From NCBI GenBank assembly GCA_938084905.1, contig CALKEQ010000001.1, positions 26,835 through 90,834 of the forward strand: a DNA stretch of 64,000 nt, written 5' to 3'. The DNA is from an uncultured bacterium. Lineage in GTDB: Bacteria > Desulfobacterota > Syntrophorhabdia > Syntrophorhabdales > JANXAF01. The position numbers and the translations under genes were made by a program. Position 1 is the first letter of the stretch. Every line of letters begins with the position of its first letter. Shown here one piece after another: positions 581 to 58,344 of this stretch. The notes under the pieces are model-generated. The model had not been told where the DNA came from. It worked only from the letters and a program-made list of their open reading frames with translations, and searched no databases.

Positions 581-3058
581 ATGAGGAGTTACGATCCCTC
601 TAAAATAGAGGAGAAGTGGCAGAAGATCTGGGAGGAAAAAAAGCTTTTCAAGGCTACAGAAAAAAGCACAAAGGAGAAGTTCTACATACTAGAGATGTTC
701 CCATACCCTTCGGGAAGGATTCATATGGGACATGTGAGAAATTATTCCATCGGAGATGTACTTGCCAGATACAAGTGGATGAAGGGGTATAATGTCCTTC
801 ACCCAATGGGATGGGACGCTTTCGGAATGCCAGCTGAAAATGCAGCGATGGAGCACGGAATACATCCCGCTCAGTGGACTTACCAGAACATAGATTACAT
901 GAGAAAACAGCTCAAGCGCCTAGGTTTCAGTTACGACTGGGACAGAGAAATAGCGACCTGTGATGTGGATTACTATAAGTGGGAACAGTGGTTTTTTCTA
1001 AAAATGTACGAAAGAGGTCTCGTCTATAGAAAAAAGGCACCTGTTAACTACTGTGAAAGATGCACGACCGTACTTGCGAACGAACAGGTCCTAAACGGAA
1101 GGTGCTGGAGATGTGGGGAGATTGTAACTCAGAAAGAACTTACCCAGTGGTTTTTTGCGATAACAAAATACGCCGATGAACTTTACGATTTTTGCGACAA
1201 GCTTGAGGGTTGGCCGGAGAAGGTAAGACAGATGCAGAAGAACTGGATAGGAAAGAGCGAGGGTGTGGAAGTCGATTTTTACGTGGAGGATGGAACACCA
1301 TTGAAAATATTCACAACAAGGCCAGATACCTTATTCGGTGTAACTTTTATGGTTTTAGCTCCTGAACATCCACTTTCGGAAATACTACCAAGAGGGACGG
1401 AGTACGAAGAGGAAGTAAGGGCATTTATAGAGAGAATTAGATCTCAGGACAGAAGTTTTAGGGGAGAGGGGGCTTTGGAAAAGGAAGGTGTTTTCACTGG
1501 AAGATACGCCATAAACCCGGTAAATGGCAAAAGGGTTCCCATATTCATTGGAAATTTCGTTCTTATGGAATATGGAACGGGTGCTATAATGTCCGTGCCA
1601 GCCCACGACCAGAGGGATTTCGAGTTTGCAAAAAAATACGGTCTTCCCTTGGTTTTGACAATAATGCCCTATGATAGAGTCCTGGATCCTAATGAAATGG
1701 AATCCGCATATGAGGGAGACGGATACCTTGTAAATTCAATGGAATTTAACGGAATGGAAAACAGAAAAGCTATCCCGAAGATAATAGAGTATCTTGAGAA
1801 GAAGGGGATTGGAAGGAGAAGAACGTATTACAGATTGAGAGATTGGGGAATATCGAGGCAAAGGTACTGGGGGACTCCCATCCCAATGGTACATTGTGAA
1901 GACTGCGGGGTGGTACCGGTTCCCTACGAAGACTTGCCTGTAGTCCTCCCTCTTGACCTTGAAGTAAAACTTGTTGGAAAATCTCCCCTTGCTGAAAAGA
2001 GAGAGTTTTACGAGACAAGTTGTCCAAAATGTGGCAAATTGGCAAAAAGAGAGACAGATACCATGGACACTTTCGTTGAATCATCCTGGTACTTCTTAAG
2101 ATTCACGTGTCCAGATTACAAAGATGGGGCCCTCGACAAAGACCTTGTAAACTACTGGATGCCTGTCGATCAGTACATAGGGGGGATAGAACATGCCATT
2201 TTACACTTGCTTTACTCCAGGTTTTTCAACAGGGTTCTAAATGAGCTTGGTTTTGTAGAAGTTAGAGAGCCCTTCAAAAACCTCTTGACCCAGGGAATGG
2301 TTATCAAGGATGGAGCAAAGATGAGTAAGTCGAAGGGTAACATTGTTGACCCAGATTACCTTATCGAGAGGTACGGAGCTGACACAACTAGACTTTACTG
2401 TCTCTTTGCAGCTCCTCCGGAGAAGGACCTTGACTGGTCTGATAGGGGTGTGGAGGGGTGTTACAGGTTTCTAAACAGGCTATGGAGGTTCATCTCAGAA
2501 AGGGAAAATCAGCTAAAGAACACAAAGGAGATTCTCTTTGCTTATGAGGAAACTGAAAGGGACAGAGAACTGACTCAGAGGATGCACAGGACTATAAAGA
2601 AGGTCACAGATGACATAGAGAGGTTTCATCTGAACACGGCAATTGCCTCGATTATGGAATTTTTAAATTTCCTTTACAGATTGCAGGAGGAAAAGACACT
2701 GGAAAATATCCATCCCCCATTGCTCAAAGGTTGTTGTCTTATCATGCTTAAGCTACTTTACCCATTTACTCCACACATTTGCTGTGAGTTATGGGATGTA
2801 GTTGGAGAGAGATTTGAGGAACTTCTAGACGGCTGGCCAGAATATGATCCAAAATACATAGTTGAGGAGAGTGTTACTATCCCAGTCCAAATAAACGGAA
2901 AACTAAGGGACACTCTTGTTGCAAAAAGAGGTTTAGATGAAGAGGAAATAAAAAGACTCGTTTTCTCTCTCGATAAGGTCAAAAAACACCTTGAAGGGAA
3001 GGAAGTAAAAAAAGTAATAGTGCTACGAGACAAGCTAGTGAACATAGTATGCCAATGA
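581..3058 (+). CDS. leuS: leucine--tRNA ligase
   Basis: 825 aa. HIGH-type motif PYPSGRIHMGH and KMSKS motif (AKMSKSKGN); class Ia LeuS architecture with a CP1 editing region. Confidence 0.97.
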   Translation: MRSYDPSKIEEKWQKIWEEKKLFKATEKSTKEKFYILEMFPYPSGRIHMGHVRNYSIGDVLARYKWMKGYNVLHPMGWDAFGMPAENAAMEHGIHPAQWTYQNIDYMRKQLKRLGFSYDWDREIATCDVDYYKWEQWFFLKMYERGLVYRKKAPVNYCERCTTVLANEQVLNGRCWRCGEIVTQKELTQWFFAITKYADELYDFCDKLEGWPEKVRQMQKNWIGKSEGVEVDFYVEDGTPLKIFTTRPDTLFGVTFMVLAPEHPLSEILPRGTEYEEEVRAFIERIRSQDRSFRGEGALEKEGVFTGRYAINPVNGKRVPIFIGNFVLMEYGTGAIMSVPAHDQRDFEFAKKYGLPLVLTIMPYDRVLDPNEMESAYEGDGYLVNSMEFNGMENRKAIPKIIEYLEKKGIGRRRTYYRLRDWGISRQRYWGTPIPMVHCEDCGVVPVPYEDLPVVLPLDLEVKLVGKSPLAEKREFYETSCPKCGKLAKRETDTMDTFVESSWYFLRFTCPDYKDGALDKDLVNYWMPVDQYIGGIEHAILHLLYSRFFNRVLNELGFVEVREPFKNLLTQGMVIKDGAKMSKSKGNIVDPDYLIERYGADTTRLYCLFAAPPEKDLDWSDRGVEGCYRFLNRLWRFISERENQLKNTKEILFAYEETERDRELTQRMHRTIKKVTDDIERFHLNTAIASIMEFLNFLYRLQEEKTLENIHPPLLKGCCLIMLKLLYPFTPHICCELWDVVGERFEELLDGWPEYDPKYIVEESVTIPVQINGKLRDTLVAKRGLDEEEIKRLVFSLDKVKKHLEGKEVKKVIVLRDKLVNIVCQ

Positions 3059-3552
3059 AGAGATTGCCCCTTTTTTTTCTCATTCTCCTTTTTCTTTCCT
3101 CATGTGGCTACAAAATAGTTCGGGAAAAGGGAATAAACCGCGGAGAGATAAGGTCTATATATGTCTCCGCCTTCAAAAATAGCACATTCGAGCCCCATAT
3201 CAGCATGTACGTGACAGACGCGATTGTCTCAGAGCTTATTTCCCTTGGCCTCTTCGAAATAAACAGACCCAATTACGAGGCAACTCTTGAGGGCGTCATA
3301 AGCAAAATTAAGGTACGTCCTCAATCTTTGGATAAAAAGGGTTTTGCAGTTGAAAAAAAAGTGGAGGTGGAAGTCGACATTTTCCTCAAGAGGGCATCTG
3401 GTCAACTTATAAAAAAATGGTCACTTGTGGAGAATGAGACCTTCAGGTCTGACAATCCCAATTACGAGGATTACAACAAAAGGGAAGCGATAAAAAGGGC
3501 GGCAGAGAAAATTGCGAGACGCCTTTGTTCGCTCCTTTTTATGGAGCATTGA
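3049..3552 (+). CDS. lptE: LPS-assembly lipoprotein LptE-like
   Basis: Signal peptide plus lipobox (LSSCGYKI). About 165 aa, overlaps the leuS stop by 10 nt, matching the conserved leuS-lptE synteny. Confidence 0.6.
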   Translation: MPMKRLPLFFLILLFLSSCGYKIVREKGINRGEIRSIYVSAFKNSTFEPHISMYVTDAIVSELISLGLFEINRPNYEATLEGVISKIKVRPQSLDKKGFAVEKKVEVEVDIFLKRASGQLIKKWSLVENETFRSDNPNYEDYNKREAIKRAAEKIARRLCSLLFMEH

Positions 3553-19624: not shown

Positions 19625-22321
19625 ATGGAAGTCGAAATTACAATAGATGGGAAAAAAATAAAGGCTCAGAAAAATGAAAACCTTCTGAGGGTAGCGAAAA
19701 AAAACGGGATATACATTCCCAGCCTCTGCTACTATGAAAAAATTTCTCCTACAGGGGTTTGTAGACTCTGTCTTGTAAAAGTGGAAAACATGAGAGGGCT
19801 TGTTCCGGCGTGTGCGACTTTTGTCACAGACGGGATGAAGGTCATTGCAAATGATGAGGAACTCTTCGAGCTTAGACGTGACATACTCGACATGCTTCTT
19901 TCAGAGCACAACGCCGATTGCATAGCCTGTGACAAAAACGGTTCCTGCGAGCTTCAGGATCTTGCCTATAGATTCGGCCTCGAATTGAAAAACAGAAAAT
20001 TCAGACCTCTCTGGCATGAACTGGAATTAAGAAGGGACGAATCCTCCTATGTCCTCTCCTTTGACAGTTCCAAGTGCGTTAAATGTCAGAGATGTATAAA
20101 GGCCTGCTACGAGATTCAGGGAAAGGGGGTCCTTTCATTTGCAAAAAGGGGTATGGAAACGTATCTTGTGGCAGGTTTCGGAACCTGGAAAGACTCTGAA
20201 TGTGACGCCTGCGGAGAGTGTGTTCAGGCATGTCCAGTAGGCGCGATAGTTGAAAAACCGGTCTTTGAAAGGGTACGAGCGATCGATGTGGAAAAAAAGG
20301 TGGAAACAACATGCCCTTACTGTGGAGTTGGATGCCAAATAGAACTCTGGGTGAAGGAAGGAAAAATTGTGAAAGTAAGAGGTCTCGATGAGAAACCTAA
20401 CAACGGCTCATTGTGTGTTAAGGGAAGGTTCGGTTTTTCTTTTGTCCATTCGGAAGAAAGGCTAAAATCTCCTCTCCTTAGAGAGGGAAACCAGTTTAAA
20501 GAGATAGGGTGGGATGAGGCAATAAGGATTTTTGTAGAGAGAATAAAAGAGATCAAGGAAAAATACGGACCAGAAAGCATAGCAGTCCTTGCTTCTGCTA
20601 AAATCACAAATGAGGAGAACTACCTTCTTCAGAAGTTTACGAGGGTTGTCCTGGGAACTAATAACATTGACCACTGTGCCAGACTTTGACATGCACCGAC
20701 CGTCGCAGGTCTTGCGGCGGCTTTTGGTTCAGGGGCAATGACAAACTCTTTAGAGGAACTTGAGTATGCGGATTGTATTCTCCTTACAGGCTCAAATACA
20801 ACTGAGACCCACCCTGTTACCGCCACATTCATAAAAAGGGCCGTACTTTTACATGGTGCCAAGCTCATTGTTGTCGATCCAAGGGAGATCGAGCTCGCCA
20901 AATACGCAAATATCTACCTTCAGCCCAGAAACGGGACCGATGTGGCATGGATAAATGGGATGATGCATGTAATACTTAAAGAGGGGCTTCACAACAAAAA
21001 ATTTATAGAAGAGAGGACAGAAGGCTTCGAGACGATAATCCCAATTATAGAAAAATTCACTCCTGAGAAGGTTGAGGAAATAACTGGTATCCCGAGGGAA
21101 AAGCTGATCGAAGCGGCAAGGATCTTTGCAACGGCGAAGAATGGCTCCATAGTCTACGCAATGGGAATAACCCAGCATATAACTGGAACGGACAATGTAC
21201 TGTCCCTTGCCAATCTCGCTATGATCACGGGAAATGTGGGAAAGGAGTTTTCGGGTGTAAATCCTCTAAGAGGTCAGAACAACGTTCAGGGTGCATGCGA
21301 TATGGGTTGCCTCCCGTCTTTCTTGCCTGGTTATGCAAGAGTGGAAGATGCTCAAGCAAGGAAAAGGTTTGAGGATTTTTACGGAGTGCCTCTTCCAGAA
21401 AAGGCAGGACTTACAGTTGTTGAAATGATGGAGGCTGCTATAGAGGGGAAAGTAAAAGCCATGTACGTAGTTGGTGAGAATCCCCTCCTTACGGATCCGA
21501 ATATCCCTCACGTTGAGAAGGCTTTAAAAAATCTTGAATTCCTCGTAGTTCAAGACATGTTTATGACAGAGACCGCAAAATGTGCTGATCTCGTTTTACC
21601 GTCCGCTTCCTTTGCGGAAAAAGAGGGTACATTCACGAACACTGAGAGGAGAGTATTGCCTGTAAGACCCGCTTTTGAACCACTCTACGGCTCAAAAACA
21701 GATCTGGAAATTATCTCTCTTCTTTGGAGAGCCATGGGAGGGGAAATCCGGATCAGTTCATCGAAGGATGTCCTCGATGAGATAAACAGGGTAGTCCCAT
21801 CGTACCGAGGAATAACGTATGAGAGGATAAAGTCTGGAGAGAGGATTCAGTGGCCCTGTCCAGATGTTAATCACCCTGGAACAAAGTACCTGCATAAGGA
21901 TGTTTTCGCAAGAGGGAAGGGTAAATTTCATCCCGTTGACTTTATCCCGCCTAATGAGTTGCCTGATGAAGAATATCCATTTTTGCTTTCAACGGGTAGA
22001 ATCATGTTTCACTACCACACTGGTTCAATGACAAGAAAGGTCTCTTCCCTTGAACTCTTCGCTCCAGAGCCATTTGTTGAGATTAGTGACAAGGATCTCA
22101 AAAGACTCAATGTAAAGGATGGGGAGATGGTAAAGGTCATTTCCAGAAGAGGAGAAATTACTCTTAGGGCCAAAAGGAGTGAACGAGTATTTGAAGGCTC
22201 AGTCTTTATCCCATTTCATTATGCGGAGGCTTCAGCAAACATACTGACCAACGACGCTCTCGATCCTATATCGAAGATTCCAGAGTTTAAGGTTGCTGCC
22301 GTAAGGATTGAAAAAATTTAG
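19625..22321 (+). CDS. fdhA: formate dehydrogenase catalytic subunit, selenocysteine-containing, with NuoG-like N-terminal Fe-S domains
   Basis: Track ORFs 19625-20689 and 20738-22321 share one frame. The UGA at 20687-20689 sits in [14 protein letters not shown], the canonical Sec/Cys Mo-ligand position. 2Fe-2S, HX3CX2CX5C, two CX2CX2CX3CP and CPYCGVGC motifs lie upstream. Confidence 0.9.
20695..20728 (+). promoter_or_regulatory. SECIS-like hairpin directing Sec insertion at UGA 20687
   Basis: Upper stem CCGTCGCA/TGCGGCGG (20700-20707 / 20713-20720, one G-U pair) with apical loop GGUCU. Lower stem ACCGA/TTGGT (20695-20699 / 20724-20728). Starts 6 nt after the UGA. Confidence 0.7.
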
Positions 22322-47378: not shown

Positions 47379-48599
47379 GTGGAAAGGGAGAAAAAGAGGC
47401 TTCTATTTGTGATCTTTGTCATCTCCTTTATCTTGTTTACCATCTCTTCAGGTTTTCCAGCAGAGCAAAAGAAAAAGATCGAAGATTACGAAAAGATACC
47501 AGAGCGGTCACTTTCCATGGCAGCCGAATTTCCAGGAGTGGAGGTTCCGCCTGGAGAATCCGTGAATATGAACATCACCTTTTTTAACAGAGGTAGAAGG
47601 ACTGAGGCCTTAAAAGTAATGATCATTTCTAAACCTGAAAACTGGCGTGCAAGACTGAAAAGCGAAACGTACACAATTACAGGTGTATCCGTACCTTCTT
47701 TAGAGGATAAGACAATAGTCTTCGAAGCGGAACCGGATAAAACAGTAAAACCAGGTGAGTACGTCTTTGTTTTACAGGCGAAAACCATTGATGAACAGAT
47801 AACTTTGACACAGAACATAAATGTAAGGGTAAAGCCCCGTGAACCGGGAAGGGAAAGGGGAATAAGACTTACAACATCTTACCCTGTCCTTAAGGGTCCT
47901 TCAGATGCAAAATTTGAGTTTTCTGTTGAAGCTGAGAACAAGCTTGACAGAGATGCGGTCTTTAACCTATCCGCATACGCACCAGAGGGATGGGAAGTTA
48001 ATTTTAAACCCGCTTACGAATATAAAACCATATCGAGTCTAAAATTGAAGGCAAATCAGAGCCAAAGTATAACAGTCGAAATCACACCCTACAAAGATTC
48101 AAAGCCTGGAAGTTATCCAGTTATAGTTAGGGCATCATACGGAGACGTAAAAGCCGAGATCCCACTAACGGTTGTAATTACAGGAACCTATGCCATAGAA
48201 GCAGGTACACTTACAGGACTTTTAAGCCTTGACGCAAGGCAGGGTAAAAAGACGACCACAACCATCTTTCTTAAGAACACGGGAAGCGCCACTTTGAACA
48301 ACGTAAAACTCACGTCCTTTAAACCTGAAAACTGGAAGGTCGAATTTAACCCCGAATCTATACCTGTACTTGAGCCAAATCAGGTAAAACAGGTTGAAAT
48401 TTCGATTACACCTTACGAAGATGCACTTGTTGGAGATTATTCAGTTTCGGTTTATGTAGATGCGGGAAGGGCTTCGAAGAATCTGGAGTTCAGAGTAACA
48501 GTTCGGGCGGCAACAACATGGGGCTGGATAGGTGTGGGGATAATAGCCTTCGTGATTGTTGGACTCATGGTCTTATTTAGAGTTGTCGGGAGGAGGTAG
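47379..48599 (+). CDS. cell-surface protein with repeated Ig-like (NEW3/CARDB-type) domains and a C-terminal TM anchor
   Basis: 406 aa. Signal peptide, repeated beta-rich modules (PGEYVF..., PGSYPV..., VGDYSV...) and a terminal TM helix. GTG start with a GGGGAGG RBS. Confidence 0.6.
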   Translation: MEREKKRLLFVIFVISFILFTISSGFPAEQKKKIEDYEKIPERSLSMAAEFPGVEVPPGESVNMNITFFNRGRRTEALKVMIISKPENWRARLKSETYTITGVSVPSLEDKTIVFEAEPDKTVKPGEYVFVLQAKTIDEQITLTQNINVRVKPREPGRERGIRLTTSYPVLKGPSDAKFEFSVEAENKLDRDAVFNLSAYAPEGWEVNFKPAYEYKTISSLKLKANQSQSITVEITPYKDSKPGSYPVIVRASYGDVKAEIPLTVVITGTYAIEAGTLTGLLSLDARQGKKTTTTIFLKNTGSATLNNVKLTSFKPENWKVEFNPESIPVLEPNQVKQVEISITPYEDALVGDYSVSVYVDAGRASKNLEFRVTVRAATTWGWIGVGIIAFVIVGLMVLFRVVGRR

Positions 48600-49349
48600 A
48601 TGGGTAATCCAGTTATTGAGACCGAGGAACTTACAAAGGTTTACGGAAATCAAAAAGCCGTTGACAGTGTTACTTTTAGTGTATATGAGGGTGAGATATT
48701 TGGTCTTCTGGGTCCAAATGGTGCTGGTAAAACAACTGTTATACTTATGCTTTTAGGGCTAACCGAACCTACAAGCGGTAAGGCAAAAGTTCTAGGTGTT
48801 GACCCAACAAGGGATGCTATAAAGGTAAAAAGAATGATAGGTTATATGCCGGAAAATGTTGGATTTTACAACGACATGAATGCCATACAAAGCCTAAGAT
48901 TCATAGGAGAATTGAATTCCATCCCAGAAAAGGTACTTGAAGAGAGAATAGAAAAAGCACTTCAAATAGTCGGACTTGAGCAAGATGCAAAGAAAAAAGT
49001 TGGGGCCTATTCTAGGGGTATGAGACAGAGGCTCGCATTAGCAGAACTTTTAATAAAAGAACCAAAAGTTGCCCTCCTTGATGAGCCAACTTTGGGCCTT
49101 GACCCGGATGCCACATCCAAAATGATCGAACTGATTGAAGCCTTAAAAAAGGATAAGAACATGACCATCGTGCTTTGCTCCCATTATCTTGAAATGGTGC
49201 AAAAACTCTGCGACAGGGTGGGCATAATGATAAAGGGGAAGATGGTGGCGCAGGGAACTATAGAGACTTTAGCGAAGGAAAAGTTTGGAATGGGTCAGGA
49301 GGAATACACTCTGGAAGAGATTTACATGAAGTACTTTTTGGAGGCTTAA
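48600..49349 (+). CDS. ABC transporter ATP-binding protein
   Basis: Walker A GPNGAGKT, signature YSRGMRQRL, Walker B ALLDEPT. Confidence 0.92.
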   Translation: MGNPVIETEELTKVYGNQKAVDSVTFSVYEGEIFGLLGPNGAGKTTVILMLLGLTEPTSGKAKVLGVDPTRDAIKVKRMIGYMPENVGFYNDMNAIQSLRFIGELNSIPEKVLEERIEKALQIVGLEQDAKKKVGAYSRGMRQRLALAELLIKEPKVALLDEPTLGLDPDATSKMIELIEALKKDKNMTIVLCSHYLEMVQKLCDRVGIMIKGKMVAQGTIETLAKEKFGMGQEEYTLEEIYMKYFLEA

Positions 49350-49356
49350 AAAAGGA

Positions 49357-50313
49357 ATGGGCGGACTTAAAGTTGTCTTCAAAAAGGAGCTATCTGATCA
49401 TTTCACCAGTTATCGATTCCTCATAATCTTTTCCCTTATCTGGATGGTTAGTCTTCTCATAACTTACATGGTGGGAACCAGCATAAGGGAGGAACTTACA
49501 GGGATAGCCAAGCCCAGATACGTCTTTCTTTTGCTCTTTATGTCTTCTGGCGGTTTCTTCTCATTCATCCAGTTTGTTGCATTTTTTGGTCCTTTAATAG
49601 GGATCATCTTAGGATTCGATTTGATAAACAGGGAAAAGAACGAGGGAACACTTGGCAAGATTCTGGCTCAGCCGATTTACAGGGATGCGGTCATAAACGG
49701 TAAGTTTCTTGCAGGCGTTGTTACGATAAGCATCATGCTCACCTCTATTGTGCTCGTTATTACAGGGCTTGGGCTGAAAGTGGTAGGTGTGGTTCCCGGA
49801 ACAGATGAACTACTGAGAATAGCAATCTACCTCATTGTAAGTATTCTTTACGTTTCCTTCTGGCTTGGGATGGCCATTCTCTTCTCGATAATTTTCAGGA
49901 GTGTGACAACCTCGGCTTTGGCTTCCCTTGCCGCCTGGATATTTTTCACCTTCTTTGTCCCTCTTGGAGCTGGGATTGTGGCCAAATCCTTTGTACCCCA
50001 TGGAGAATCGGAAAAGACGGAAGCTATACTGAGGCAGCTCTCAATTCAAAGATCTGTTTCCCTTATGTCTCCAGTTTCACTTTATTCGGAGGCATCCTCC
50101 ACCATAATAGATCCCACAAAGAAGACAACGAGGGCTTACGTGCTTATGGGACCATTTGAAAAACTGTCAATTGAAAGATTCTCAGGCCCCCTCCCAATCT
50201 CCCAGAGCCTCCTCATTGTATTTCCATACATCATCTCCATAATAGCCATAACCACTATCCTTTTTGCGGTCTCTTATACGGTCTTTCTCAGGCAAGAAAT
50301 AAGGTCCCTGTAG
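49357..50313 (+). CDS. ABC-2-type transporter permease
   Basis: 318 aa with six or more TM segments, following the ATPase gene. Confidence 0.8.
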   Translation: MGGLKVVFKKELSDHFTSYRFLIIFSLIWMVSLLITYMVGTSIREELTGIAKPRYVFLLLFMSSGGFFSFIQFVAFFGPLIGIILGFDLINREKNEGTLGKILAQPIYRDAVINGKFLAGVVTISIMLTSIVLVITGLGLKVVGVVPGTDELLRIAIYLIVSILYVSFWLGMAILFSIIFRSVTTSALASLAAWIFFTFFVPLGAGIVAKSFVPHGESEKTEAILRQLSIQRSVSLMSPVSLYSEASSTIIDPTKKTTRAYVLMGPFEKLSIERFSGPLPISQSLLIVFPYIISIIAITTILFAVSYTVFLRQEIRSL

Positions 50314-52132: not shown

Positions 52133-53380
52133 ATGCAGAAAAAAAAGCTAGCCATAATTGTCGGTGGAGGTCCAGCTCCTGGAATAAACGGCGTAATAAG
52201 CTCAGCCACAATTGAAGCACTAAACCATGGTCTTAAGGTTTTTGGAATTGTGGGAGGTTTCAAGACCCTCTTCGACGGAAATCTGAGCAACTTTAAACCC
52301 TTAACCATAGATGACGTCTCAAGGATCCACACAACGGGCGGATCCATATTGAAAACCTCCAGAGATAGACCTGAGAACGCTCACGAAAAGTTTAAAACAC
52401 TCCTCTCCACCTTATATAAGAGCGGAATCGACTATCTCATAACCATTGGTGGAGAAGGCACTCTTTTTATGGCTTCATGGATAGAAAGAGAGACAAGGGG
52501 TAAAATCTCGGTTGTTCACGTTCCCAAAACCATAGATAACGACATTCCCCTTCCCGGTGGTTTTTCCACATTCGGTTACCAGACTGCACGCCACGTGGGG
52601 GTCAACCTTGTAAAAAACATAATGGAAGATGCCAGGACAATGGAGAGATGGTACTTCATCACAACTATGGGAAGACACACAGGCCATCTTGCACTTGGAA
52701 TTGGAAAGGCAGCAGGGGCAACAATCACCCTTATACCTGAGGAATTCCCGGAAAAGAGACTCTCAGTGAGAAAGGTTGCTGATATACTCGCAGGTGCCAT
52801 AATAAAAAGGTGGTCCATGGGGAGACAGTACGGTGTTGCCATCCTCGCAGAAGGGATTGCGGAAAAGTTCGATATGACCGAACTATCAAGGATGGAGTTC
52901 ATTGAAAGGGACGAAGTATCAGGAAAAGTAAGAATATCGGATATCCAGTTAGGACGTATCTTAAAACCCTTTGTTATGGAGACATTGCGTGAGTGTGGGA
53001 TACAGACGAACATAGTTTCTATGAACATAGGATACGAACTGAGGGCTGCTGATCCCATCCCCTTCGATATAGAGTACACAAGAAATCTAGGTTACGGGGC
53101 TGTCAATCACCTGATAAAAGGTGGCACAGCGGCAATGATAACGGTTTATGAAGGAAGAATAATGGCTGTTCCATTTGTGGAGATGTTAGATTCAGGAGGA
53201 AATGTTAAGGTTAGGAAGGTTGAAATTGACTCTGAACTTTACAAAGTTGCAAGAGAGTATATGATAAGGCTTGAGGAGAGTGACTTAAGTGGTGAAACCT
53301 TAAAAAAACTTGCAGAGACAGCCAATATGAGTCCTGAAAGGTTCAGGGAACGTTTTGGGTACCTCTTTGGCCTCTCCTGA
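52133..53380 (+). CDS. pfk: 6-phosphofructokinase, long (about 415 aa) clade; phosphoryl donor uncertain (PPi or ATP)
   Basis: GGGPAPGINGVI, IGGEGT, PKTIDNDI and TMGRHTGHLAL motifs. Confidence 0.85.
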   Translation: MQKKKLAIIVGGGPAPGINGVISSATIEALNHGLKVFGIVGGFKTLFDGNLSNFKPLTIDDVSRIHTTGGSILKTSRDRPENAHEKFKTLLSTLYKSGIDYLITIGGEGTLFMASWIERETRGKISVVHVPKTIDNDIPLPGGFSTFGYQTARHVGVNLVKNIMEDARTMERWYFITTMGRHTGHLALGIGKAAGATITLIPEEFPEKRLSVRKVADILAGAIIKRWSMGRQYGVAILAEGIAEKFDMTELSRMEFIERDEVSGKVRISDIQLGRILKPFVMETLRECGIQTNIVSMNIGYELRAADPIPFDIEYTRNLGYGAVNHLIKGGTAAMITVYEGRIMAVPFVEMLDSGGNVKVRKVEIDSELYKVAREYMIRLEESDLSGETLKKLAETANMSPERFRERFGYLFGLS

Positions 53381-54650
53381 TGGGAACGAAGAAAACCCTC
53401 ATTTTTGATTCTTCAATGGCAAAAAGACCGGAGAGAATCTCAATCAAGGTCCTTCCCTCTTCCTTTTTTGCCTCAAGGAGGAAAGCGAATCTTTTTTTCC
53501 AGTTCTCCCCCTTTCTCTCATCAGTATAAAGACCGTAAAGGATGTTCAGTCCCCTCCAATCATCCTTTCTTTTATATTCCACAATTGAAAAGAGTGGGTT
53601 TATCAAGCTCTGGATGCGCTCAAATCTGAAAGGAAAAAGGAAGGGTAAACTAAAGCTCTTGGTGTTCTTTTTTTCCTCATATCCGAAAAGTGGCCAGACG
53701 TTGAAAAATGTCTCTTCCCCTTTTTTCGCGTACCTGTTTAATATGAGAAATCTCACATCGATCTCCTCTTCTCCTTCAAAGAACGATTCTTTTTTCGTGT
53801 AAAGAAAAGGCCAGAGAATCCCTTCTATTTCATATTCCTCCGTGACTAGATGTTTAAAAAAAGGAAAAATTGAGATTCCAACTTCCTTTCCATCTGATTT
53901 TGTAATGAAAGGCCAGAGGATGGACTCCTTCGTGCCCTCACGATTTTTGAAGTAGCAGTAAAGTGGAAAAAGTACGCAATAGGACTCGACTGATCTTGAT
54001 TCGTTTCTACCGGATAGATAAAAGGGCAGAAAATAAAAGGAGTAGTAAGGGTCTTCTGTGTCCATGTCCTTCTTTTCTAAATAAATTAATGGCCATAGAA
54101 AAAATCTCGATTTCTTTACCCCTTCGATTTCCCTTACTCCGTAAAGTGGAAAAACCTTGTATCCAGTCTCTTTACCACTGTACAAAGAAAAAAAGGGCCA
54201 TATAAAGTTCTCCTTTTTCTTCCCCTTGATTTCGCTTACCCCGTAAATTGGCCAAAGAAAAAAGCCAATTCTGTCCCTGCCGAATCTGTTTTTCATCTCT
54301 CCGTAGAAGGGAAAGATGCCAAAAAAAGTTTCATCCCCTTCCCTTCCATAAAATAGGAGAAAAAGGGAGAAGTAGCTCCTATCTATTTCCTTTGTGGCAG
54401 AGTAAAATGGGATAAAGTAGGATTTATCAGGCGAAAATTTTGCAAGGGGGTATGGAAACATGAGAGCCTTCTCCTCATGTATTAGAAAAAGGGGCCTTAT
54501 GATTTTTTCCTTTTTACCCTCCTTTTTTGAGAATGAGACAAGGGGACCGAATATCCTTTTTTCTTCCCCAAATTCATAAAAGACGGGCCAGAAGGCCTCA
54601 AGACTTAAAGGCAAAAGTAAAAAAAGAGTAAGGAGATACCTGTGCATCAA
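53343..54650 (-). CDS. secreted repeat protein of unknown function ([W/F]P[LFI][FY] repeats)
   Basis: 435 aa with a signal peptide and about 17 degenerate repeats (FLWPIYGV, FIWPFFSLY, FLWPLIYL, ILWPFITK, ILWPFLYT, VWPLFGY, IFPFYGE...). 4-nt overlap with the mlaD stop. Confidence 0.7.
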   Translation of the reverse strand: MMHRYLLTLFLLLPLSLEAFWPVFYEFGEEKRIFGPLVSFSKKEGKKEKIIRPLFLIHEEKALMFPYPLAKFSPDKSYFIPFYSATKEIDRSYFSLFLLFYGREGDETFFGIFPFYGEMKNRFGRDRIGFFLWPIYGVSEIKGKKKENFIWPFFSLYSGKETGYKVFPLYGVREIEGVKKSRFFLWPLIYLEKKDMDTEDPYYSFYFLPFYLSGRNESRSVESYCVLFPLYCYFKNREGTKESILWPFITKSDGKEVGISIFPFFKHLVTEEYEIEGILWPFLYTKKESFFEGEEEIDVRFLILNRYAKKGEETFFNVWPLFGYEEKKNTKSFSLPFLFPFRFERIQSLINPLFSIVEYKRKDDWRGLNILYGLYTDERKGENWKKRFAFLLEAKKEEGRTLIEILSGLFAIEESKMRVFFVPIRRGQRGTQNVP

Positions 54651-55672
54651 AAGAGAATCCCAAGGAGGGTTCCGAGAACCGTAATGGGTGTCATCTCCTG
54701 AATTCCTTCGGAGGCTCTCTGAATATCCTTTATCGCCTTTTTGGTCTCTGCGTATAGAGTTTCGTCTTTTGTAAGCTTGCCAATTGTGCCCTCCCCCTTA
54801 CTTACGGATTCTGTTATTTCCTTCAGATTCCTCACCGTATCTTTTGCCTCCACATATATGGATTCGTCTTTGAGGAGTCTACCAATAGTTCCTCTTCCTT
54901 CGTCGACTTCCTTTGCGATGTTTCTAATCGTTCCAACTGCCTCTTTTGCCTCGCTTATCATTGCCTTAGCATCTCTGTACACAGAATCATCTTTAAGGAG
55001 TAGTCCAAGGGTTCCTCTCCCCTCTTCCACCTCCTTAACTATTTTTTTTAGTCCTGATACTGCCTCATCAGCATTGGATATGAGCTTTATTACGTTTTCC
55101 TTGTTTTTTGATACAATGTCACTAAAATCGCCGCTTACGTTCTTTAAATTCTTCAAGCTCTCCTTTATGTTGACTTTCTCCTTTTCTCCAAATACGCCCT
55201 TAAGTTCACCCATTAACTCTCCAAAGCTAGATGCTGCCATATCTATCCTTTTAAACATCTCCTCAAAGGATGGGAAACTGACCACGTTTTCTATTACCCC
55301 GTTTTTAGGAAGATAAACCTTTTCCTTCCCTGGCAAAATTTCAATGTACCTATCTCCGAGGACACCCTCTGTTCTCACAACAACTAAACTGTCCTTCGGA
55401 ATCTTCACATCTTCCCTTATCATCATAACCACCTTTGCCCTGTAGTTCTCAAGGGTTACACTTTTCACCTTTCCGATTATAACCCCTGCCAGCTGAACAG
55501 AGGAACGGGTATCTATTCCCGATGCATTTTCAAGATATGCGGAAAGCTCGTAAAATTTCACCTTCATCACCCCGAACCTCTCAATCTTGAAGGAAATGTA
55601 AAAAAGGAGGATTATTCCAGCAAGAACAAGCAAACCAACCTTTAACTCAGGTCTCAATTTTTCCCTTTTCAT
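54647..55672 (-). CDS. mlaD: MCE/MlaD-family protein
   Basis: N-terminal TM helix plus MCE domain. C-terminal three-fold G(R)GT[LI]G.L.KD..[VIL]Y repeat. Confidence 0.85.
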   Translation of the reverse strand: MKREKLRPELKVGLLVLAGIILLFYISFKIERFGVMKVKFYELSAYLENASGIDTRSSVQLAGVIIGKVKSVTLENYRAKVVMMIREDVKIPKDSLVVVRTEGVLGDRYIEILPGKEKVYLPKNGVIENVVSFPSFEEMFKRIDMAASSFGELMGELKGVFGEKEKVNIKESLKNLKNVSGDFSDIVSKNKENVIKLISNADEAVSGLKKIVKEVEEGRGTLGLLLKDDSVYRDAKAMISEAKEAVGTIRNIAKEVDEGRGTIGRLLKDESIYVEAKDTVRNLKEITESVSKGEGTIGKLTKDETLYAETKKAIKDIQRASEGIQEMTPITVLGTLLGILF

Positions 55673-56430
55673 TTTTTACCCCCTATCTCCTTTATTCTTG
55701 CTGCTTCTAAAAACTGGGAGATTTCCTCAACGTCCATCGATATTATCTCTTCAGGTGTGCCATAAGCGATTATCTTTCCTCCTGATAGCATTGCCACCTT
55801 GTCTGCTATTCTGAACATTCCTATTATGTCATGACTTATAATTACGTACGTTTTCTTAAGTTTCCTCTGAGTATCCTGTATGAGCCTGAGGATTGTAAGT
55901 GCAGTAACAGGGTCGACACCTGCAGTCGGTTCGTCAAAAAGAACAACAGGAGGATCAAGTACAAGGGCCCTCGCAAGGCCAGCCCTCTTTTTCATACCAC
56001 CGGACACCTCGCTTGGAAGTTTGTCGTCGTGCCCAAATAAACCTACCTGCTCGAGTTTCTCATCAACTATCCTCTTTATCTCTTCCTTTCTCATCTTTGT
56101 CCTCTCAATCAGAGGAAATGCCACGTTCTCCCAGATGGTCATTGAATCGAAAAGTGCTGCTTCCTGGAAAAGCACCCCAAACTTAGTCCTCATCTTATTC
56201 AGCTCACTCTCATCAAGTCTTGTAATCTCGACTCCATCAACCCATATCTCACCGCTGTCTGGTTTCATCAGTCCAATTATGTGCTTAAGGAGCACACTTT
56301 TACCACTTCCACTTTTTCCAATAATAACCGTTATCTTTCCCCTTTCTACCTCAAGATTCACACCATCTAGGACCCTGTTATTCTCAAAACTCTTCTTAAG
56401 TTCCACTATCCTTATGACAACATCTTCCAT
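55669..56430 (-). CDS. mlaF: ABC transporter ATP-binding protein MlaF
   Basis: Walker A GKSGSGKS, signature VSGGMKKRAGLARAL, Walker B VLFDEPT. Start set at the ATG at 56430 (MEDVVIRIVEL), directly after the mlaE stop. Confidence 0.88.
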   Translation of the reverse strand: MEDVVIRIVELKKSFENNRVLDGVNLEVERGKITVIIGKSGSGKSVLLKHIIGLMKPDSGEIWVDGVEITRLDESELNKMRTKFGVLFQEAALFDSMTIWENVAFPLIERTKMRKEEIKRIVDEKLEQVGLFGHDDKLPSEVSGGMKKRAGLARALVLDPPVVLFDEPTAGVDPVTALTILRLIQDTQRKLKKTYVIISHDIIGMFRIADKVAMLSGGKIIAYGTPEEIISMDVEEISQFLEAARIKEIGGKK

Positions 56431-56431
56431 A

Positions 56432-57196
56432 CTAAAAAAGGAGAGAGGTAAGTATGTAGTCTGAAACGAGTATGGACACACACGAGGCAACAACGGCCTC
56501 GGTTGTGGCTTTTCCAACACCTTCCGCTCCACCTTTGGCATAGAAACCCTTACAACAACATATAAGACTAAATATGATCCCAAAGCATGCAGCTTTTACA
56601 AGGCCAACGTATATATCATGAAACTCAAGGTACCTGTACATCCTGTTCAGAAAGATCCCCTCTCCAACATCCAGTAATTTAACTGCCACAAAGTAGCCTC
56701 CCAAAATACCAAGGACGTCAGCAATTATAGTCAAAATTGGAAGCATAAGGAAAGAGGCGATAACACGTGGAACGATAAGGTACTTTACAGGATTCAATGC
56801 CATCACAACGAGTGCGTCAATCTGTTCAGTTACCCTCATTGTTCCAATCTCCGCAGCCATAGCTGAACCCGCTCTGCTTGCAACCATAAGTCCAGTAAGG
56901 ACAGGGCCAAGCTCTCGAGTCATACTAAGTGCTACGGTTACTCCTATAAGTCCTTCCGCTCCCACCTTCCTAAAGCCATAGTAACTTTGGAGTGCAAGCA
57001 CCATTCCAGTGAACGTACCTGTAAGAAACACAACAGGTAAGGACTTTACACCTACAAATTCCATCTGCCTTACTATGTAGTCGATTTTTAAAGGTCTCTG
57101 GAATGCCAGAAGGGCACACTGAAAGAAAAGGTATCCTACCATCCCAAGTTCTGAAACGAACCTACTCAGAGGTTTAAGGATCTCCTTTAGGTTCAT
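56432..57196 (-). CDS. mlaE: ABC transporter permease MlaE
   Basis: 254 aa. The MlaE-type motif ALSMTRELGPVLTGLMVASRAGSAMAAEIGTMRVTEQIDAL is highly conserved. Confidence 0.9.
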   Translation of the reverse strand: MNLKEILKPLSRFVSELGMVGYLFFQCALLAFQRPLKIDYIVRQMEFVGVKSLPVVFLTGTFTGMVLALQSYYGFRKVGAEGLIGVTVALSMTRELGPVLTGLMVASRAGSAMAAEIGTMRVTEQIDALVVMALNPVKYLIVPRVIASFLMLPILTIIADVLGILGGYFVAVKLLDVGEGIFLNRMYRYLEFHDIYVGLVKAACFGIIFSLICCCKGFYAKGGAEGVGKATTEAVVASCVSILVSDYILTSLLF

Positions 57197-58344
57197 AGGT
57201 AGTACCTTTTTACACTCTTTGATATTCCACAGAAGATCTCGTAAGGTATGGTTTTCAGTTTCTCTGCCAGTTCCCAGGCTGTTATTCTCTCCTTCCCTTC
57301 ACAGCCAAGGAAAATTACAGGATCACCTTTTTGAGCTTCTGTTTCTGTCACGTCTATCAGCGTCCAGTCCATGCATATTCTACCAACTACAGGGCATCTC
57401 TTACCTCTCACTATTACAGAGGCGCAATTGGAAAGTTCCCTCCTGTATCCCTCACCGTATCCAAAGGGAACAAAAGCGATCTTGGTTTTTCTGTTCGTTC
57501 TATACGTTCTTCCATAGCTCAGAAAAGAACCCTCTTCAAAATCCTTTAAAAATGCGATTCTTCCTTTCAAAGATAGGGCCTCCTCTATTGGGAGAGCCCC
57601 CTCCAAGTTCCTTGAGGGGTAAGTGCCGTAAATACCGATTCCAACTCTCACCATGTTAAAGTGGGATTCAGGGTAGTTTATAACTGCACCAGTGTTTGCC
57701 ATATGAACGTACTTCGGGTTTATTCCACTTAATCGAAAAAAGTCCACTATTTTGGAGAAAATTTCGATTTGACCTAAACCATAGGAATCTCTCTCCTCCG
57801 AACTGGAAAAATGGCTCATTATCCCGTCAACTAAAAGGGAACTCTCATTCCTTAAAAACTCCACAAGAGCTCCCGCTTCTTCCGGCATAAAACCAAGCCT
57901 TCCCATGCCTGTGTCAAACTTTATATGGAAGGGTATTTTTTTCCCTGATCTCTTTGCAAGACCGAGAAGTCTCTTTAGCCCTTCGATCTCGTGTACTACA
58001 GGAGTAAGGTCATACTTAAGTATTGACCTTTCTCCATCAAAAGGGAGAATCCCTCCGAGAACGAGGATCCTTCCCCCTATCTTAGCCTTTCTCAGTTCTA
58101 TCCCCTCTTCTATGGTTGATACGCCAAAAAAATTACAGCCTGCCAAAGAAAGCCTCCTCGAGACCTCAATTATACCGTGACCGTAGGCGTCGGCCTTAAC
58201 AACCGCGAGAACATCCACTTCCTTTCCTACTTTCCCCTTTATGAGATTGTAGTTTCTCTCTATTTTTCCTAGGTCAATTTCGACAAAAATCCTCTCCTTC
58301 TCTTTAGCTCGAGAGTCTTTTGAAGACCTTCTCATAAGCTTCAA
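57193..58344 (-). CDS. alr: alanine racemase
   Basis: AVVKADAYGHG PLP-lysine motif. 383 aa. The exact start is uncertain because it overlaps the hemL 3' end. Confidence 0.88.
   Translation of the reverse strand: MKLMRRSSKDSRAKEKERIFVEIDLGKIERNYNLIKGKVGKEVDVLAVVKADAYGHGIIEVSRRLSLAGCNFFGVSTIEEGIELRKAKIGGRILVLGGILPFDGERSILKYDLTPVVHEIEGLKRLLGLAKRSGKKIPFHIKFDTGMGRLGFMPEEAGALVEFLRNESSLLVDGIMSHFSSSEERDSYGLGQIEIFSKIVDFFRLSGINPKYVHMANTGAVINYPESHFNMVRVGIGIYGTYPSRNLEGALPIEEALSLKGRIAFLKDFEEGSFLSYGRTYRTNRKTKIAFVPFGYGEGYRRELSNCASVIVRGKRCPVVGRICMDWTLIDVTETEAQKGDPVIFLGCEGKERITAWELAEKLKTIPYEIFCGISKSVKRYYL

Follow-up and report, generated by a model that had tools for sequence, protein, structure and literature searches.

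How does a lipid transporter of the Mla type reach the outer membrane when the usual envelope parts are encoded nowhere near its inner-membrane core? The question is raised by a stretch of 64,000 nucleotides (nt) from an uncultured bacterium of the Syntrophorhabdales (contig CALKEQ010000001.1), hereafter the window, in which the genes mlaE, mlaF and mlaD are followed by a further gene, here called X, for a secreted protein of 435 amino acids (aa). We lean towards reading X as a Sec-exported accessory subunit of this needle-type MlaFED (MCE) lipid transporter, placed at its outer-membrane end. Gene linkage carries this reading: of the related loci that allow a judgement, about 95% have X beside needle-type mla genes, and on that basis it is probably a missing envelope component of a needle-type Mla transporter.

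Operon and conserved neighbourhood of X

X and the mla genes follow one another on the minus strand, and their stop and start codons overlap or lie 1 nt apart throughout, up to hemL and a siroheme-decarboxylase-like gene 5' of alr:

57193-58344, minus strand: alr (alanine racemase), overlapping the start of mlaE; the usual upstream neighbour in the class-A loci described below
56432-57196, minus strand: mlaE (permease); PF02405 at 7e-86, TIGR00056
55669-56430, minus strand: mlaF (ATP-binding cassette (ABC) ATPase); ABC_tran, with MlaF as the top NCBIfam match
54647-55672, minus strand: mlaD, 341 aa; PF02470 at 5e-19
53343-54650, minus strand: gene X, 435 aa from TTG or 434 aa from the ATG at 54647; a secreted β-hairpin-repeat protein of an uncharacterised family

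An ATGA joins alr to mlaE and another joins mlaF to mlaD, while mlaE and mlaF are separated by a 1-nt gap. We include alr as context only and do not claim it as a member of the transport system. The open reading frame (ORF) listed for mlaF (55669-56583, minus strand) begins at a TTG within mlaE; the real start is probably the ATG at 56430 (MEDVVIRIV...), 1 nt past the mlaE stop, rather than that TTG at 56583. At the mlaD/X junction (...CTC TTT TGA TGC...), a start at the TTG (54650) gives a 4-nt overlap with the mlaD stop, just as a first-pass annotation of the window had reported for this 435-aa frame. An ATG stands one codon later, at 54647, and overlaps the same stop by 1 nt (TGATG). A database protein identical to X (P0001) has a length of 434 aa, and its start was therefore called at the ATG. 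Judged by this packing, X is in one transcript with mlaD, its start overlapped with the mlaD stop. At its 3' end, X overlaps the convergent phosphofructokinase gene pfk (52133-53380, plus strand) by 38 nt (53343-53380).

The first-pass annotation had named conserved linkage to mla genes as a test of its proposal, and the linkage is there. We pooled 118 distinct loci from homologue look-ups, a one-genome-per-species scan and a metagenome scan. X adjoins mla genes in 106 of them; five are informative and unlinked, one has no mla gene upstream and too little downstream sequence, and six are too short to judge. In 98 of the 118, mlaD is immediately upstream of X, and the most frequent arrangement of the mlaD stop and the X start is a 1-nt overlap. 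All three genes, mlaE-mlaF-mlaD, stand next to X in 39 of the 40 loci that come from the homologue look-ups and the species-genome scan, and the metagenome scan, which started from the clade of the one genome locus without linkage, found mlaD directly upstream in 70 of 80 loci. Several gene orders are involved: alr-mlaE-mlaF-mlaD-X in the clade of the window, X-mlaE-mlaF-mlaD in Desulfuromonadales and, in subfamilies 24-28% identical to X, OTCase-X-mlaE-mlaF, dnaB-X-mlaE-mlaF and TPR-mlaD-X. The last of these has no mlaEF nearby, so that X appears to track MlaD in particular.

The absence of MlaA/VacJ, MlaB and MlaC from the window, noted at first reading, holds under a Pfam scan of essentially all window ORFs of at least 100 aa, which returned no PF04333 (MlaA), PF05494 (MlaC) or STAS protein. 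None of the three was found among the Pfam-annotated neighbours in the related loci.

The partner gene is equally distinctive: judged by sequence, the X-linked MlaD is always a protein with a long helical needle that ends in a conserved hydrophobic peptide. In the window it consists of a transmembrane helix, an MCE domain (residues 41-115), a helical needle region of ~190 residues and the hydrophobic peptide. Within residues 218-341 (window 54650-55021), the needle region contains three tandem repeats of ~40 aa with the pattern (E/K)G(R/E)GT(L/I)G.L.KD(D/E)..Y..., and the hydrophobic peptide follows them. MlaD homologues of related loci match PF28544 Helical_needle. The PDB matches of the window MlaD reach into solved needles: that of Mce1B (residues 19-283) and that of a 312-aa Mce/MlaD protein (13hr_I, residues 16-240) that we take, unverified, to be PA3213. 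The C-terminal peptide is kept as TP(I/V)T(V/I)LG(T/V)..G... in every X-linked MlaD examined and is a candidate docking or insertion element:

54650-54694, minus strand: MlaD C-terminal peptide, residues 327-341, MTPITVLGTLLGILF-COOH

Two classes of loci were compared at the ends of the two proteins. In class A (L001-L033), mature X starts with [F/L/V]WP and MlaD ends in ...G..F, with F or W as the terminal residue. In class B (L046-L125), X is often a lipoprotein (...WVSGC followed by ATLNPGPRRENFAPLF) or is without the first WP, and MlaD ends in ...G...(K/R). The terminal residue of MlaD thus co-varies with the N-terminus of X. Because this co-variation follows clades, the independent events behind it are few; a direct relationship between the MlaD tail and X would nevertheless predict it. 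As for the flanking genes, alr lies directly 5' of mlaE with overlapping codons in the class-A loci, including the distant L005-L007; hemL and the siroheme-decarboxylase-like gene precede alr in the closer ones.

Family, repeats and predicted fold

By the libraries and literature searched, X represents a previously undescribed protein family and fold. The first-pass annotation could not assign it to a family and would have taken a confident match to an unrelated characterised one as a refutation; Pfam, NCBIfam, PDB sequence and Foldseek searches all give no characterised match. X itself has no match in Pfam or NCBIfam, 53 relatives have none in Pfam at E<=10 and ten long or giant relatives have no Pfam match either; PDB sequence and profile searches with X are equally negative. 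X fails membership of MlaA/VacJ (PF04333), with no sequence match, an all-β model with one helix and no lipobox. It fails membership of MlaC (PF05494), with no Pfam or NCBIfam match and a repeat ribbon for a fold, and it fails the sequence test for PqiC-like ABC_trans_aux proteins (Pfam at E<=10 for X and the 53 relatives; PDB sequence and profile searches).

A single-sequence search with X gives 331 matches. The family profile collects 2,287 cluster representatives at 50% identity (E<=1e-3), 772 of them at E<=1e-30, and a profile of the sister clade has 1,027 matches. By source name, the hosts are Syntrophorhabdaceae, Syntrophobacterales, Desulfuromonadales, Desulfobacca, Desulfobacteria, Ca. 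Desulfofervidus, Nitrospinota and Ca. Tectomicrobia, and all named members are labelled 'hypothetical'. The same hairpin unit makes up relatives as short as about 350 aa and as long as 1,767 aa. Five giant proteins (P0147, P0189, P0231, P0233 and P0269; 989-1,767 aa) contain 8-12 stretches of the repeat and no Pfam domain; P0147 sits among glycoside-hydrolase genes and not among mla genes. One class-B relative, P0130, has at residues 258-283 a lone partial match to PF03640 Lipoprotein_15 (26.2 bits, cutoff 24.4), a family described as a 'secreted repeat of unknown function'. No other tested member shows PF03640, and the match was judged incidental.

X can be divided as follows:

54594-54650, minus strand: signal peptide, residues 1-19, MMHRYLLTLFLLLPLSLEA followed by FWP; signal peptidase I (SPase-I) type, without lipobox
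53622-54593, minus strand: aromatic-Pro hairpin array, residues 20-343; 36 short β-strands (DSSP of the model)
53589-53621, minus strand: α-helix, residues 344-354, FERIQSLINPL, which breaks the array
53376-53582, minus strand: C-terminal hairpins, residues 357-425, with Gly/aliphatic arcs (LYGL, AFL, LSGL, FF) in place of W/F-P
53343-53375, minus strand: C-terminal tail, variable and hydrophilic, RRGQRGTQNVP and stop; predicted local distance difference test (pLDDT) <50 for residues 431-435

Most of what the first reading had said of the sequence stands. The signal peptide has n-, h- and c-regions and no Cys when read by eye, and its A-F-W-P boundary is kept in the family consensus; one relative carries the source annotation 'secreted', and lipoboxes such as ...WVSGC followed by ATL occur in the sister clade. 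The body of the protein is built of aromatic-proline repeats, and all nine of the motif examples quoted at the time are present. X contains 11 copies of the strict motif [WF]P[LFIV][FYIL], where 20,000 shuffles average 0.42 and never exceed 4; for a looser aromatic-Pro motif the count is 15 against 1.5 (maximum 7). Pro follows seven of the nine Trp of X, and Phe makes up 12% of its residues. The C-terminal hairpins have a conserved consensus of their own, NxLYGLYT...RFAFL...LSGLFG...FFIP. The dimensions had to be revised: the repeat period is 16-20 aa rather than 20-25 (Pro spacing; autocorrelation peaks at 16-19, 34-35 and 53-56), and in place of about 17 repeats the predicted structure has 46 strands, equivalent to about 23 hairpins.

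This structure was modelled with AlphaFold2 on a 53-sequence alignment (pLDDT 91.6, predicted TM-score (pTM) 0.75). By DSSP, the strands are 4-8 residues long and run as hairpins in a single continuous meander, accompanied by the helix 344-354; residues 2-16 are also modelled as a helix, with low pLDDT. The W/F-P motifs fall outside the strands themselves, in arcs of 3-5 residues between them (LWPI, IWPF, FPL, LWPL); 21 arcs contain Pro, and the last ones have Gly instead. By loop classification, these hydrophobic arcs alternate strictly with charged turns of 1-3 Lys/Glu/Gly residues (KG, EG, GE). Each repeat of ~17 residues thus makes one β-hairpin, aromatic at its tip (for example FF-LWPL-IY) and charged at its base. 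The whole resembles a comb, predicted with high confidence, in which a row of W/F-Pro aromatic arcs lines one edge and a row of Lys/Glu-rich tight turns the other.

Residues 97-304 (208 aa), modelled alone, reach a pLDDT of 95.1. Foldseek searches of the PDB found no global analogue of the full model (best TMq 0.19). For the 208-residue fragment the top match is the CPAP G-box (4ld1; probability 1.00, TMq 0.31, TMt 0.39), followed by OspA and a designed sheet, with 4bxr and 3ckg also among the single-layer matches. Barrels and propellers score TM <=0.24 with the full model and the fragment, and any propeller scores TMq <=0.19 against the full model, although propellers lead the list by E-value. 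The grooves of AsmA, Lpt and TamB are absent from the top 50 PDB matches of either.

Covariation was assessed by mean-field direct coupling analysis (DCA) on 480 sequences (effective number, Neff, 320). Adjacent strands are coupled at up to z = 10.5 (mean 5.4), which recovers the meander independently. The mean z falls to 1.7 at a strand separation of 2 and to 0.46 at a separation of 3, and background is reached by ~7 strands; nothing in the couplings points to a closed barrel, to packed blades or to turns stacked on one another. The strongest long-range pair couples W133 with residue 354, about 20 strands apart. Two topologies were considered and rejected. A closed ring had been suggested by contacts between the N- and C-terminal strands at Neff 228; it was dropped because these did not persist at Neff 320. 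A stacked coil, with about 21 strands to the turn, was set aside since the curve of covariation against separation has no peak there. The DSSP meander, the fragment that folds alone, the single-layer analogues, the adjacent-strand covariation and the variable length of the family point together to an open-ended ribbon of hairpins. On this evidence, a single-layer ribbon of β-hairpins, open and solenoid-like and with a G-box/OspA-like architecture, is preferred to a barrel or a propeller. Of the three folds that the first-pass annotation had offered for a Foldseek check, solenoid is thus the one approached, in the form of an open ribbon, and the other two are disfavoured.

The proposed place of X in the transporter

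Our proposal for X follows the logic of PA3211-14 and PqiABC. In the PA3211-14 system, the MCE-needle gene is followed by the gene of an outer-membrane lipoprotein, which forms a ring around the tip of the needle and binds the C-terminal peptide of the MCE protein (PMC13631591). Long MlaDs without a barrel have been noted, and most long MlaDs have no known outer-membrane partner (PMC10665443). We therefore propose X as an outer-membrane-proximal accessory of a bridge-type MlaFED. X would act at the outer-membrane end of the MlaD needle, taking the job that the lipoprotein ring of PqiC or PA3214 does for PqiB or PA3213, or that of MlaA in the shuttle-type system. It would receive the needle tip or its C-terminal peptide and connect it with the outer membrane at the inner leaflet. 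Contact with lipid or membrane would be made by the aromatic-proline edge, while the charged edge would face the periplasm. The lipoproteins of the sister clade point to membrane association. The idea of a periplasmic or outer-membrane Mla partner, already put forward at first reading, is thereby upheld as regards association, by linkage and the lack of any family match, even if a minority of members are not near mla; contact and location are suggested by analogy with the known systems.

A bolder version, which we regard as possible yet doubtful, would make X a new class of envelope lipid-transport component. An amphipathic β-hairpin ribbon would be docked on the MlaD C-terminal peptide, with its aromatic-proline edge contacting lipid or entering the outer membrane. 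X would then complete a trans-envelope bridge independent of MlaA and MlaC in Desulfobacterota, Nitrospinota and relatives, as the missing outer-membrane partner of the barrel-less long MlaDs.

Several observations weigh against placing X at the outer membrane. The sample of loci is biased towards the subfamilies that served as search seeds. Five informative loci are not near mla (L034, in a Nitrospinota metagenome-assembled genome (MAG), L060, L064, L090 and L120), nor is a 1,767-aa paralogue that lies among glycosidase genes, and the repeat fold is therefore not intrinsically Mla-specific. As read from the sequence, the X of the window has no lipid anchor, and its C-terminus (...RRGQRGTQNVP, in a tail that varies across the family) has no terminal aromatic β-signal, so that its sequence proves no residence in the outer membrane. 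In addition, the covariation suggests that hairpin tips and the helix 344-354 are coupled to the tips of non-neighbouring hairpins, tip-tip pairs making up 40% of the top-50 long-range couplings, against 13% expected. The hydrophobic edge may therefore be partly buried within the monomer and not inserted into a membrane.

The same data bear on other readings of X, and the ribbon itself suggests one of them. Rather than capping the needle at the outer membrane, X could span the periplasm along it, with the aromatic-proline edge as a continuous hydrophobic stripe that sheathes the needle or, in the manner of bridge-type lipid transfer proteins, serves as a track for lipids. An open-ended array would be expected to vary in repeat number, as the relatives of up to 1,767 aa do, and the array fragment 97-304 folds alone with equal confidence. 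The top structural analogues are open single-layer sheets, the covariation is local only, zero by ~7 strands and without a peak for ring closure or stacked turns, and a class-B lipoprotein N-terminus could anchor one end. Fully extended, 46 strands at ~4.8 Å would reach about 22 nm, a length that is arithmetic and not a measurement on the model. The pTM of 0.75 and the strong coupling of W133 with residue 354 disfavour a fully straight rod, however, no AsmA, Lpt or TamB groove is among the top Foldseek matches, and MlaD already has a needle of ~190 residues, a type of needle that in other MCE systems is taken to cross the periplasm. We consider this spanning arrangement unlikely, although it deserves more weight than the readings that follow. 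A soluble lipid carrier shuttling between the outer membrane and MlaD in place of MlaC would suit the signal peptide without anchor, the richness in aromatic and hydrophobic residues (the 12% Phe) and the lack of MlaC in the window and among annotated neighbour genes. It sits poorly with the long needle of the partner, a type of MlaD that in surveys tends to occur without MlaA and MlaC and is a proposed bridge (PMC10665443). The tethered lipoproteins of the sister clade, the repeat ribbon, with no pocket-type fold detected, and the tight 1:1 translational coupling with mlaD, which suits a stable complex, all make a carrier improbable.

X might also have a function unrelated to lipid transport, such as binding to the cell wall or surface, and share the operon through vertical inheritance. 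Some homologues and the giant paralogues do lie in unrelated contexts, and the class-A operon also keeps a peptidoglycan gene, alr. Yet the linkage to mla holds at 24-30% identity, in at least three gene orders, amid many flanking genes and with mlaD alone; overlapping stop and start codons are the commonest arrangement, and the type of MlaD C-terminus co-varies with the type of X N-terminus. We give such a function as small a chance as the carrier. An integral outer-membrane β-barrel or a β-propeller is brought to mind by an all-β, aromatic-rich protein with Tyr-Gly pairs on neighbouring strands and by weak Foldseek matches to tandem propellers and VDAC. Strands of only 4-8 residues, a strong charge on every second turn, a variable hydrophilic tail without a β-signal and TM <=0.24 to every barrel or propeller are all contrary to it, as are a covariation that is small at separation 3 (mean z 0.46) and closes no barrel, and a repeat that is uniform at the level of the hairpin and varies widely in number among relatives. 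Both folds were rejected on strand length, β-signal, TM-scores and covariation, and they are the least probable of the explanations weighed here, close to negligible. Homology of X to the MlaD barrel of Veillonella was likewise set aside, that barrel having 10 strands and being fused to MlaD. The reading we retain is that of an accessory subunit at the outer-membrane end of the needle.

Surroundings of the locus and known systems

Elsewhere in the window, an LptE-like gene (3049-3552, plus strand; PF04390 at 8e-8) directly follows leuS, which fits a diderm envelope that bears and transports lipopolysaccharide. A molybdopterin oxidoreductase frame of the NuoG/FdhA type (19625-22321, plus strand) has an in-frame TGA at 20687-20689 (NIDHCARL-TGA-HAPTVAGL) and is probably, from its sequence, a selenocysteine-containing formate dehydrogenase that mechanical ORF calling split in two. 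At 47379-50313 (plus strand), genes for an ABC ATPase and an ABC-2 permease come after that of a secreted NPCBM_assoc-domain protein; the same trio also adjoins the mla-X locus in a related MAG (L001).

Among known systems, the closest in layout are PqiABC of E. coli and PA3211-PA3214 of P. aeruginosa, where PqiC and PA3214 occupy the same slot as X, immediately after the MCE-needle gene. The PA3211-14 operon further encodes ABC parts resembling MlaE and MlaF, together with a helical-needle protein that has a single MCE domain, of 312 aa against 341 aa for the window MlaD. PqiC-like proteins are lipoproteins, as are some class-B relatives of X, whereas the X of the window has no lipobox. They are also much smaller (about 210 aa for PA3214) and form octameric rings, in contrast with the 435-aa all-β hairpin repeat of X, to which they bear no sequence relation (no Pfam match of any kind). 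In the study of PA3211-14 and PqiC, how lipids translocate at the outer membrane and whether further partners exist were still unclear (PMC13631591).

The shuttle-type Mla system (MlaA-OmpC/F, MlaC and a short MlaD) shares with the window the inner-membrane core of MlaE, MlaF and an MCE protein. It differs in having the MlaA, MlaB and MlaC that the window lacks, and its MlaD is short where that of the window is long and bears a needle. X is unrelated to MlaA, an α-helical ring, or to MlaC, and may by analogy supply the outer-membrane or periplasmic function of these parts. Desulfovibrio alaskensis, another member of Desulfobacterota, has a classical mla operon with toluene-tolerance (MlaC-family) and VacJ genes (PMC5193443); the X type is therefore an alternative solution and not a trait of the whole phylum.

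The long-MlaD system of Veillonella parvula resembles the window in its core of MlaEFD only, its elongated α-helical MlaD and its lack of MlaA and MlaC. Its long α-helical MlaD carries a fused C-terminal outer-membrane β-barrel of 10 strands and is a proposed trans-envelope bridge (Grasekamp et al. 2023, PMC10665443). The window MlaD ends instead in a single hydrophobic strand of ~12 residues, with the separate 435-aa X encoded beside it. About 85% of MlaDs are long, and many have no recognisable outer-membrane element (PMC10665443). A term search of the text of that paper found no partner protein described for a barrel-less MlaD, and our literature searches found no Mla or MCE partner of the X kind.

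As to the fold, the G-box of CPAP/SAS-4 (TCP10 domain) and the central sheet of OspA are, like X, built as a single open sheet in which antiparallel hairpins follow one another and no conventional core is formed. The likeness is one of analogy only, at 7-11% identity and a root-mean-square deviation of 12-15 Å. These are eukaryotic centriolar and spirochaetal surface proteins, and they have neither the aromatic-Pro arcs nor the polarity of the sheet edges seen in X.

The Mla/MCE core is already known; none of the libraries and papers searched describes the partner family or the fold of X. How the needles of MCE and Mla systems are attached to the outer membrane is an open question in the field. 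The X family, large and uniformly 'hypothetical', tracks needle-type MlaD in several operon layouts and has a predicted fold without a solved analogue. It offers a concrete candidate for the missing outer-membrane component in a major group of anaerobes and makes the question testable; if the bolder version is true, X would complete a trans-envelope Mla bridge that depends on neither the MlaA nor the MlaC of the shuttle-type system.

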